Translations under genes and position numbers: made by a program
Notes under the pieces: model-generated
The model's input: the letters and a program-made list of their open reading frames with translations, nothing else
Told to the model about the DNA's origin: nothing
Database searches by the model: none
Part shown: in pieces, positions 30,859 to 32,142 of the stretch
Numbering within the stretch: position 1 is the stretch's first letter
Layout of the letters: each line of letters opens with the position of its first letter
Assembly: GCA_030700025.1 (NCBI GenBank)
Contig: JAUYKI010000010.1
Location: 16,648 to 80,647 of the forward strand
DNA from: a bacterium
GTDB taxonomy: Bacteria > Patescibacteriota > Minisyncoccia > UBA6257 > 02-FULL-45-10c
Direction of reading: 5' to 3'
DNA length: 64,000 nt

Positions 30859-31158
30859 CCCGATGTATAAATTTTGAAATGTTCTATACATATATTTTAA
30901 AATCATATAAAGAAGGTTCCTATTACATAGGTAGTTGTGAGAATGTAGACAAAAGATTACGATTACACAATCAAGGTTTTGTGACATCAACTAAACGATA
31001 TAAGCCATGGCAATTAGTATATAGTGAGAAGTTTGATAATTTAATTGGCGCGCGACGTCGAGAAGCTCAGATAAAATCGTTGAAGAAAAGAAGCGCGGTA
31101 GAAAAACTGATAAGAACATTTCAAAATTTATACATCGTGGATCCGCGATAACTTTGGT
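30859..31158 (+). mobile_element. AT-rich GIY-YIG cassette bounded by 24-bp perfect inverted repeats
   Basis: CGATGTATAAATTTTGAAATGTTC at 30861-30884 and its exact reverse complement at 31114-31137; sits between a tRNA-Ala 5'-half copy and the intact tRNA-Ala. Confidence 0.5.
30879..31151 (+). CDS. small GIY-YIG nuclease (YhbQ/UPF0213-like)
   Basis: YTYILKSYKEGSYYIGSCENVDKRLRLHNQG matches GIY-x10-YIG...R...H...N; about 30% GC; alternative start at 30846. Confidence 0.7.
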   Translation: MFYTYILKSYKEGSYYIGSCENVDKRLRLHNQGFVTSTKRYKPWQLVYSEKFDNLIGARRREAQIKSLKKRSAVEKLIRTFQNLYIVDPR

Positions 31159-31229
31159 GGGCTCATAGTAAAGTGGTATTACGCAGCATTCGCATTGCTG
31201 AGGCTCGGGTTCGATTCCCGATGGGTCCA
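31159..31229 (+). tRNA. tRNA-Ala(CGC), no encoded CCA
   Basis: acceptor gggctca/tgggtcc with G3:U70 identity pair; D arm gtaa-agtggta-ttac; anticodon arm cagca-ttCGCat-tgctg; T arm tcggg-ttcgatt-cccga. Confidence 0.8.
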
Positions 31230-31524
31230 CATGAGTCCACCAAAGTTATCGGGACATTGCCAAGGCGCGAGTTTCCCGACTTTCATTAAAGCTACCGAAA
31301 GAAGTCGAGGATCCTCGATGGCTTTGCCATCGGGACGATTCCGCCTAGGTCCACCACAAACGAATACGCCACCCGGGTGGCGTATTGAATTTGACAAATA
31401 ATTACTAAGGGTGTATTATATGAAATAATTCCTATCTGTATGGATAGGTCGCTCCGCAAGGGGTCAGGCGGTAAGAATCCTGCCGCAACTTAGGGTTCAC
31501 AGCACATTGAAAAGGAGGTGCCGT

Positions 31525-32019
31525 ATGGCACGCCCAAGCGAAGAGACAGAGTTTGTAATTCGACAAGGTCCCTCGAAGCTTGACCTGATACTTGCCCTGT
31601 TTGACACCGACATGGGTATAAGAACCGTGAGGTTCCAGGAGGCCAGTCCAGGGTCCGTAAAATACTATCAAGATTGGTTGGTTCAGATCGTTTCCGTAAG
31701 GAGACGGCATACTGCGACAACTTGGGAAATTGAAGGGATCGTGGAAACGAGCGGCGAAAGAGAGCGAGTTTCAATCTACTATTGTACTGCGACGCGCGAA
31801 GGTCGTATGAGGTTCGTGGAGAACCTCCAAATCAACGACAGCGTAGAAGCGTCAAATGACGCCAAGAGGGCATCAGCTCTCATGACCGTCATTGAAAGAA
31901 TGGTGTCCAGCCATAGCTCGGAGATTCACTGCCGGTTTTTCCAACTTTTCGAAAAAGCGAAGCTCATCTCTCGCGCCAAAGATTCCATTTCCCTTGCCGA
32001 AGCGATTAGGGACATCTGA
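31525..32019 (+). CDS. hypothetical protein (164 aa)
   Basis: AAAGGAGG RBS 8 nt upstream; GC-rich structured leader at 31430-31510. Confidence 0.5.
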   Translation: MARPSEETEFVIRQGPSKLDLILALFDTDMGIRTVRFQEASPGSVKYYQDWLVQIVSVRRRHTATTWEIEGIVETSGERERVSIYYCTATREGRMRFVENLQINDSVEASNDAKRASALMTVIERMVSSHSSEIHCRFFQLFEKAKLISRAKDSISLAEAIRDI

Positions 32020-32142
32020 AACAACAAACTTTAACTCAAGCCCCGCGTGGAAAAAATTCTGCGTGGGGCTCTCATTTTTATATTCACATAAACTGCCCTA
32101 AAGCAGTTTTTTATTTTACCGAAAATATTCTAAAATAAACTC

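Follow-up and report, generated by a model that had tools for sequence, protein, structure and literature searches.

The window, by which is meant the whole 64,000-nt stretch of DNA that was analysed, belongs to an 830-kb Patescibacteria genome and carries on its forward strand a compact one-gene cassette consisting of a near-consensus promoter, a leader of about 100 nt, an ORF of 164 amino acids (P0001) and a terminator (Table 1). The promoter would place the start of transcription at about 31425-31427. At the equivalent place, a promoter matching at least 9 of 12 positions is found in 32 of the 37 related loci with enough upstream sequence, and the end of its -10 box mostly lies 6-10 nt ahead of the AUUC of the leader; given this spacing, the leader motif probably forms the very 5' end of the mRNA. 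From that end the leader runs through AAUUC, a first hairpin (P1), a second hairpin (P2), an H-type pseudoknot made of P3 and PK, a linker, the Shine-Dalgarno (SD) sequence and finally a hairpin, P5, that contains the AUG. Conservation of the CACAUUGA portion of the linker is limited to long-form genes, that is, those of about 165 amino acids. The segment that the original prediction had picked out as a leader is found at 31442-31505, followed by AAGGAGG and the ATG, and its contrast in composition with the AT-rich sequence before it is likewise real, with 52% G+C in the leader against 22.5% in the promoter stretch just upstream (44.7% in the whole window).

Table 1. Positions in the window of the cassette, the elements of its leader and a neighbouring hairpin.
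Feature	Position	Strand	Details
Hairpin, 10 bp, CCGG loop	31363..31386	.	Not part of the element; upstream of the promoter, not conserved
Sigma-70-type promoter, TTGACA, 17 nt, TATTAT (11/12)	31391..31419	+	-35 box 31391-31396
Structured 5' leader, about 100 nt	31427-31531	+
Unpaired (A)AUU of AAUUC	31427..31430	+	Conserved putative mRNA 5' end; nearly invariant columns in leader alignments A2, A3 and A5
P1 hairpin, CCUAUCU / GGAUAGG, 7 bp	31431..31448	+	Strands 31431-31437 / 31442-31448; GUAU tetraloop 31438-31441
P2 hairpin, GCUCC / GGGGU, 5 bp	31451..31464	+	Strands 31451-31455 / 31460-31464; GCAA (GNRA) loop
P3, pseudoknot stem 1, GCGG x CCGC	31468..31486	+	Strands 31468-31471 and 31483-31486; its loop houses the 5' strand of PK
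PK, pseudoknot stem 2, GAAUCCUG x UAGGGUUC	31475..31498	+	Strands 31475-31482 and 31491-31498
Pseudoknot loops	L1 31472-31474; L3 31487-31490	+	L1 UAA; L3 AACU
Linker ACAGCACAUUGAA	31499..31511	+
Shine-Dalgarno sequence AAGGAGG	31512..31518	+	Direct reading; conserved in all copies
P5 hairpin, GUGCC / GGCAC, GUAU loop	31518..31531	+	Strands 31518-31522 / 31527-31531; 3' strand forms codons 2 and 3
ORF P0001, 164 aa	31525..32019	+	ATG at 31525
Intrinsic terminator	32039..32070	+	14-bp stem, then T-run; closes the one-gene cassette

A further hairpin, ahead of the promoter, had been reported as an 11-bp stem at 31352-31378 preceding the leader. The hairpin exists, but with a 10-bp stem and at 31363-31386; lying upstream of the -35 box, it falls outside the transcript, and none of the related loci has it. 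A split tRNA-Ala unit probably ends there, with the hairpin as its terminator. The stretch 31318-31386 holds a 3' remnant of tRNA-Ala ending in GGTCCACCA at 31348-31356 and then the hairpin, and an intact tRNA-Ala lies farther upstream at 31159-31230.

The fold of the leader

Taken singly, the leader of the window is no more stable than chance would allow: its minimum free energy of -30 kcal/mol compares with -28.6 +/- 3.1 for shuffled sequences (z = -0.44). The case for structure beyond chance therefore comes from comparison alone. An alignment of all leaders by MAFFT misaligned two subtypes in the region of the pseudoknot, and a realignment to a covariance model was used in its place; this model, whose structure contained only P1, P2 and PK, was derived from 11 leaders of the same subtype as the window's. 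Covariation was then counted over 26 base pairs in five helices among 41 distinct leaders. Standard pairs fill 97.5% of the cells, against 75.1% in shuffled alignments (none of 500 shuffles reaches the observed value), and pairing drops to 35-48% when the partners are slid by 1-3 columns. Changes on both sides that preserve the pair occur in 23 of the 26 pairs. The proportion of paired cells, with the number of pairs showing compensatory change in brackets, is 99.3% for P1 (6/7), 97.1% for P2 (4/5), 98.1% for P3 (4/4) and 97.8% for PK (6/6), with 93.8% for P5. P3 and P5 stood outside the structure of the alignment model, yet 98% and 94% of their cells are paired. Given that G-U pairs are common and other non-pairs make up just 2.5% of cells, the folded strand is the plus strand, in the sense of the mRNA. 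The original prediction, that the 5' leader holds a cis-regulatory RNA with structure, is thus backed by five covarying helices in 41 distinct leaders.

The pseudoknot was recovered independently. A dedicated pseudoknot finder places an H-type pseudoknot in 41 of 41 copies, with a mean score of 28.6 against 14.8 for shuffled sequences (95th percentile 23.8), and the dimensions over these copies are narrow: 4-6 bp for stem 1, 2-4 nt for L1, 6-9 bp for stem 2, which is directly stacked on stem 1, and 3-5 nt for L3. Certain junction letters of this domain, GUC and AAGG, are conserved. P2 varies in length; lineages other than that of the window prolong it by an inner stem with a GNRA cap. Judged by comparative sequence evidence, this conserved, folded and pseudoknotted mRNA leader is a real and new family of structured RNA, and both its fold and its association with the gene are very well supported.

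The last helix encloses the start codon. The AUG (31525-31527) consists of the last two letters of the P5 loop and the closing G, and the 5' strand of P5 takes in the last G of the SD sequence. The hairpin recurs in 58 of 59 instances, its stem varying by numerous compensatory changes (GUGCC/GGCAC, GUGUC/GACAC, GUACC/GGUAC, AAUCU/GGAUU, GCUCC/GGAGC, UAGAU/GUCUA), and its predicted stability is -8.5 kcal/mol in the window and between -4 and -11 kcal/mol across instances. Since these variants extend into codons 2 and 3, the residues that follow the initiator methionine vary with them (for example MA, MT, MS or MV). A stem of at least 4 pairs closing such a loop occurs at 8 of 452 crudely called, SD-preceded ORF starts of the same genome, so P5 is no general habit of that genome.

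The loops of P1 and P5 resemble each other and, in part, change together. Of 65 instances of the P1 loop, 46 read GUAU and a further 10 GNAU; both loops are GUAU in 42 of 65. Rare variants have altered jointly at the two places, to GGAU/GGAU (L018, L052), UUAU/UUAU (L089) and UCAU/UCAU (L090); these four matching non-majority pairs compare with 0.19 expected, and 1 of 100000 shuffles reaches as many when the kinship of lineages is ignored. The signal is confined to a few lineages, and within the window's own subtype there are GAAU and GCAU loops in P1 that have no mirror change in P5. A direct kissing interaction between the two loops was considered and rejected. GUAU could feasibly pair with itself through two A-U and two G-U pairs; GGAU/GGAU, UCAU/UCAU and GAAU/GUAU cannot pair. 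Because GGAU and UCAU are unable to self-pair, loop-loop pairing does not explain the co-variation. Also rejected was a leader peptide or uORF opening at the AUG within the P1 loop, given that its frame is not kept and its G is often absent: A or C stands in place of G after the P1 loop in L012, L022, L039, L044, L048, L062 and L093, and the length of P2 varies by non-multiples of 3, which speaks against a uORF frame.

Natural variants also show which parts may be lost. Three leaders (L054, L065, L096) have no pseudoknot and consist of P1 and P2 followed by a small hairpin with an anti-SD and then P5; in L099 only P1 and P5 are left, and in L060 and L061 only the start-codon hairpin.

Other variants contain letters that could bear on access to the SD sequence. 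In many of them (A5 columns 86-93 / 105-110, for example L006:2930-2960), the 5' strand of P3 and its flank read UAAGGAGGU, a perfect look-alike of an SD sequence that pairs with CCUCC or CCUCU, look-alikes of an anti-SD. A decoy-SD switch is possible in these leaders; the window's own subtype, with GCGG/CCGC as its P3, has no such SD-like and anti-SD-like strands. Short-form leaders (L056:2885-2988, L063:1-34, L084:1834-1929) have a pyrimidine stretch, GUUCUUU or GUUCCU, 3-6 nt 5' of the SD sequence, with which it could pair as a small local hairpin; the stretch is missing from long-form leaders, including that of the window. Pairing of the 5' AAUUCCU with the SD sequence, which is invariant, is possible on paper.

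The protein family behind the leader

P0001 consists of an N-terminal domain of about 100 amino acids and a C-terminal helical extension. The domain carries the motif GPSK.DLML.LFD ... R.V.F ... EDGSGESW ... YYST.TR.G, and P0001 has no match by sequence search in Pfam, NCBIfam, PHROG, PADLOC or the PDB; a cluster look-up with ten representative proteins returned only 'hypothetical protein, Patescibacteria group bacterium'. AlphaFold2 predicts the N-domain confidently (pLDDT 82.5) as one helix packed on a six-stranded sheet, followed in the long forms by a three-helix tail. When two AlphaFold models were compared with the PDB, the best fold match was CBF-beta at a TM of 0.54 and an E of 0.1, which is not significant, and the search returned no recognisable RNA-binding fold and nothing that resembled ToxN, MazF or any other toxin. 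With a pI of about 6-8, the protein is not basic. The domain marks out a much larger superfamily, with 683 representatives of 50%-identity clusters at E<=1e-10, a number that rises to 1797 at E<=1e-3; most of its proteins have 85-125 amino acids.

Seven members of the family (P0070, P0071, P0074, P0080, P0115, P0211, P0212) are chains of 187-229 amino acids that hold two copies of the N-domain. Such chains would fit a protein that acts as a dimer on two hairpins.

Among bacteria of the group the cassette is thinly scattered. A search of the 60 nearest genomes did not find the gene, and the N-domain occurs in 13 of 400 other sampled Patescibacteria genomes, spread over many families, with no copies found in IMG/VR viral contigs; public metagenomes hold 66 relatives of the protein at roughly 50% identity. 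Loci encoding relatives were fetched from genomes (18) and metagenomes (52), 70 in all, of which 62 were usable in having both the N-domain and available upstream sequence. In 58 of the 70, the covariance model found a leader whose end coincides with the start codon. Six of the remaining 12 match the C-terminal extension only and two are cut at the 5' contig end, while L050 has a divergent copy of the leader that is seen by eye. The last three are L040, a deletion derivative, and L060 and L061, with the start-codon hairpin alone. Conservation at orthologous loci, which had been proposed as a check on the original prediction, was thereby obtained, since 58 of the 62 usable loci have the leader directly against the start codon. 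Further, the leader is better conserved than the protein, with obvious compensatory changes.

The association holds in both directions. When genomes were picked solely for their match to the protein profile, the RNA model located a leader immediately ahead of the gene in 11 of 13, and 8 of these hits have E<0.01. Conversely, where the RNA model matches and the long-form protein profile found nothing, the match precedes very divergent members of the same domain, among them two tandem paralogues with a leader each. Leader RNA and protein domain are thus a fixed pair. The leader is absent from the other genes of the same genome, where the next-best matches have E values of 0.38 and 0.65. The neighbours are unrelated from locus to locus (cysS/dnaB in L006/L076, amidohydrolase/mraY, hypotheticals, ftsH), and neither a transporter or enzyme behind the leader nor any conserved neighbour was seen among these loci.

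Possible modes of control

Most likely, the leader sets the amount of protein that is made, and from its position and sequence it would act in cis on translation initiation. How it might do so is a matter of competing explanations. The one tentatively favoured here, at somewhat less than an even chance, is that the leader is an autogenous translational operator bound by the protein that it encodes. In this scheme the small protein, perhaps as a dimer, would recognise the two look-alike GUAU hairpins. P1, held by the scaffold of P2 and the pseudoknot, would be the entry or high-affinity site, and binding at P5 would stabilise the hairpin over the AUG and shut off 30S initiation. The resulting feedback would buffer the level of a protein that is driven from a near-consensus promoter.

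Several lines of evidence point this way. An operator should overlap the SD sequence or start codon and accompany its gene whatever the context: P5, seen in 58 of 59 instances, takes in the AUG and the last G of the SD sequence, and the leader stands before the gene in 58 of 62 loci and in 11 of 13 genomes. Such a one-to-one tie, with one protein family and changing surroundings, is typical of autogenous leaders and not of riboswitches. Likewise, the retention of P1 and P5 in variants without a pseudoknot fits recognition of the hairpins themselves better than metabolite sensing, and loops that are alike and change together suggest recognition by a co-evolving factor, for which the encoded protein is the obvious candidate. 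Against an operator stand the lack of a recognisable RNA-binding fold, the near-neutral pI and the GAAU and GCAU loops of P1 that are unmirrored in P5. A pseudoknot with conserved junction letters, moreover, is also what a small-molecule aptamer looks like.

This last resemblance is the core of the explanation that ranks second, a riboswitch for a small molecule or ion in which P1, P2 and the pseudoknot would form the aptamer and the ligand would alter access to the SD sequence and AUG, for instance through P5 or through anti-SD pairing. Five covarying, aptamer-like helices do lie in the 5' leader, the compact H-type pseudoknot among them has conserved junctions (GUC, AAGG), it lies at the mRNA 5' end, immediately ahead of the SD sequence, and the architecture is that of translational pseudoknot riboswitches. 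An expression platform might be provided by P3, whose strands in many variants resemble an SD (UAAGGAGGU) and an anti-SD (CCUCC), or by the SD-pairing pyrimidine stretch of the short-form leaders. However, the SD/anti-SD alternative is absent in the window's subtype, a threshold as loose as E<=10 brings up no riboswitch family of Rfam, and the leader precedes a single protein family with no metabolic or transport theme and no conserved neighbours. The supposed aptamer core is not kept throughout, either. L054, L065, L096 and L099 dispense with the pseudoknot while retaining P1 and P5, and L060 and L061 keep the start hairpin alone; the loss of the pseudoknot counts against a riboswitch because the ligand pocket should be the most constant part. 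Taken together, a riboswitch appears rather unlikely. The label 'riboswitch-like', in the sense of metabolite sensing, that came with the original prediction is accordingly unproven and, given the one protein family, the co-varying look-alike loops and the pseudoknot-less variants, disfavoured.

Less probable still is a leader that works without self-feedback, either constitutively, by protecting the 5' end from decay and tuning translation through P5, or under the control of another factor such as a ribonuclease, the ribosome or a chaperone. A stable hairpin 4 nt from the presumed 5' end and a moderately stable one over the AUG are what such a leader would need, and a protein without an RNA-binding signature would be no obstacle to it. 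Yet plain stabilisers require no pseudoknot, no conserved loop letters and no co-varying loops, and the element is exclusive to one gene family and absent from the other genes of its own genome.

The idea that the leader is an RNA partner of the protein, perhaps processed at the GUAU hairpins in a selfish or defence module akin to type III toxin-antitoxin systems, is the least probable: ToxI-type RNAs are pseudoknots, the protein is about the size of a ToxN-type toxin, tandem paralogues bring their own leader each, and the cassette is rare and patchy (13/400 Patescibacteria genomes, 0/60 nearest relatives) and sits at unrelated sites, but 31230-31560 holds no tandem repeat array, no terminator separates RNA from ORF, and neither PADLOC, Pfam and PHROG, nor IMG/VR viral contigs, nor the fold comparison with ToxN, MazF and other toxins gave a match. 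Membership in the ToxIN-like class proper was rejected, the combination of repeat array, terminator and ToxN/AbiQ-family endoribonuclease being absent here.

Beyond these explanations, a broader picture may be drawn that is possible though doubtful. The leader and its gene could be a mobile RNA-protein pair of candidate-phyla bacteria, in which a new RNA-binding fold reads hairpins with GUAU tetraloops, with loop and protein specificities particular to each lineage; the real targets would then be other RNAs with the same hairpin, and the leader would be their molecular mimic. Alternatively, within the same doubtful picture, the pseudoknot domain could be an aptamer, and the leader a new orphan riboswitch class controlling a superfamily with 1797 representatives.

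The tandem paralogues mentioned above lie in one genome, where L087:1501-1940 and L090:1501-1957 are cassettes about 600 nt apart, encoding proteins of 117 and 122 amino acids, each behind a leader of its own. Their loop pairs differ, UUGU/GUUAU in L087 and UUCAU/GUCAU in L090, which suggests recognition specific to each paralogue.

Kinship with known systems, and rearranged cassettes

Searched over the whole window at gathering thresholds, the 4227 models of Rfam 15, among them riboswitches, ribosomal-protein leaders and LOOT, return only 7 tRNAs, and at E<=10 with permissive filters over 31100-31700 nothing is found in 31420-31535; the Rfam scan that had been proposed for the leader thus gave no match. 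Likewise, no publication on the RNA or the protein was found among open-access papers and bioRxiv.

Autogenous translational operators that take in the start region are known from several systems. The coat proteins of the phages MS2, Q-beta and PP7 bind an operator hairpin at the replicase gene, and E. coli thrS has two look-alike operator hairpins; operators with pseudoknots serve the ribosomal proteins S15 (rpsO) and S4 (alpha operon). In common with these RNA-phage, thrS and ribosomal-protein operators, the leader has a hairpin whose 4-nt loop contains the AUG, with the SD sequence just 5' of it. Features of this group are also a second, similar hairpin upstream, a pseudoknot within the leader and the strict tie of the RNA to its own gene in any genomic context. 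It differs from all of them in lacking any similarity of sequence or model, and its protein, which has no known fold, belongs neither to the coat proteins nor to the synthetases or ribosomal proteins. Unlike a single operator hairpin, moreover, the leader comprises several helices over about 100 nt.

In shape, the leader recalls the riboswitches with an H-type pseudoknot that act on translation (preQ1-I/II/III, SAM-II, SAM-V, fluoride, guanidine-III), for it has a compact pseudoknot of this type in a 5' leader, a few nt upstream of the SD sequence. Unlike them, it matches no Rfam model at E<=10 and shows no metabolic theme among its genes, and its constant parts are P1, P2 and the start-codon hairpin, whereas the pseudoknot is dispensable in natural variants. 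From the LOOT motif (RF03000) it is set apart by the lack of an Rfam 15 match in 31100-31700 at E<=10 and by a different architecture and associated gene. By analogy, then, its closest counterparts in mechanism would be the phage start-codon operators, thrS and the pseudoknotted operators of ribosomal proteins, and in shape the riboswitches of the H-type pseudoknot.

The implications reach beyond one locus. A large part of bacterial diversity consists of the ultra-small Patescibacteria, and very little is known of gene regulation in them. The leader is a clean new family for RNA databases, and it offers a direct experimental handle on a large, uncharacterised protein superfamily (1797 representatives of 50%-identity clusters). 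Should the specificities of loop and protein truly co-evolve, the pairs might be usable as orthogonal parts for translational control.

A few loci carry altered forms of the cassette. In L008:2884-3006 and L030:1735-1857 a 16-nt tandem duplication of the PK 3' strand and linker (GGATTCACAGCACATT GGATTCACAACACATT) interrupts an otherwise normal leader. The genes at L016:2995-3294 and L014:2983-3390 are truncated or frame-shifted, at 100 and 136 amino acids compared with 169 in L010, and stand behind intact leaders; they are likely recent pseudogenes. Finally, L040:1-260 (metagenome contig Ga0209211_10271970) is a deletion derivative in which the P1 hairpin (GAUUCUUAGUCGUAUGGCUAAG) joins the ORF at about codon 30 (MAKRMVKFHTPEW), and the loss of P2, the pseudoknot, the SD sequence and the first 30 or so codons suggests recombination between P1 and P5 at their look-alike GUAUGG sequences.
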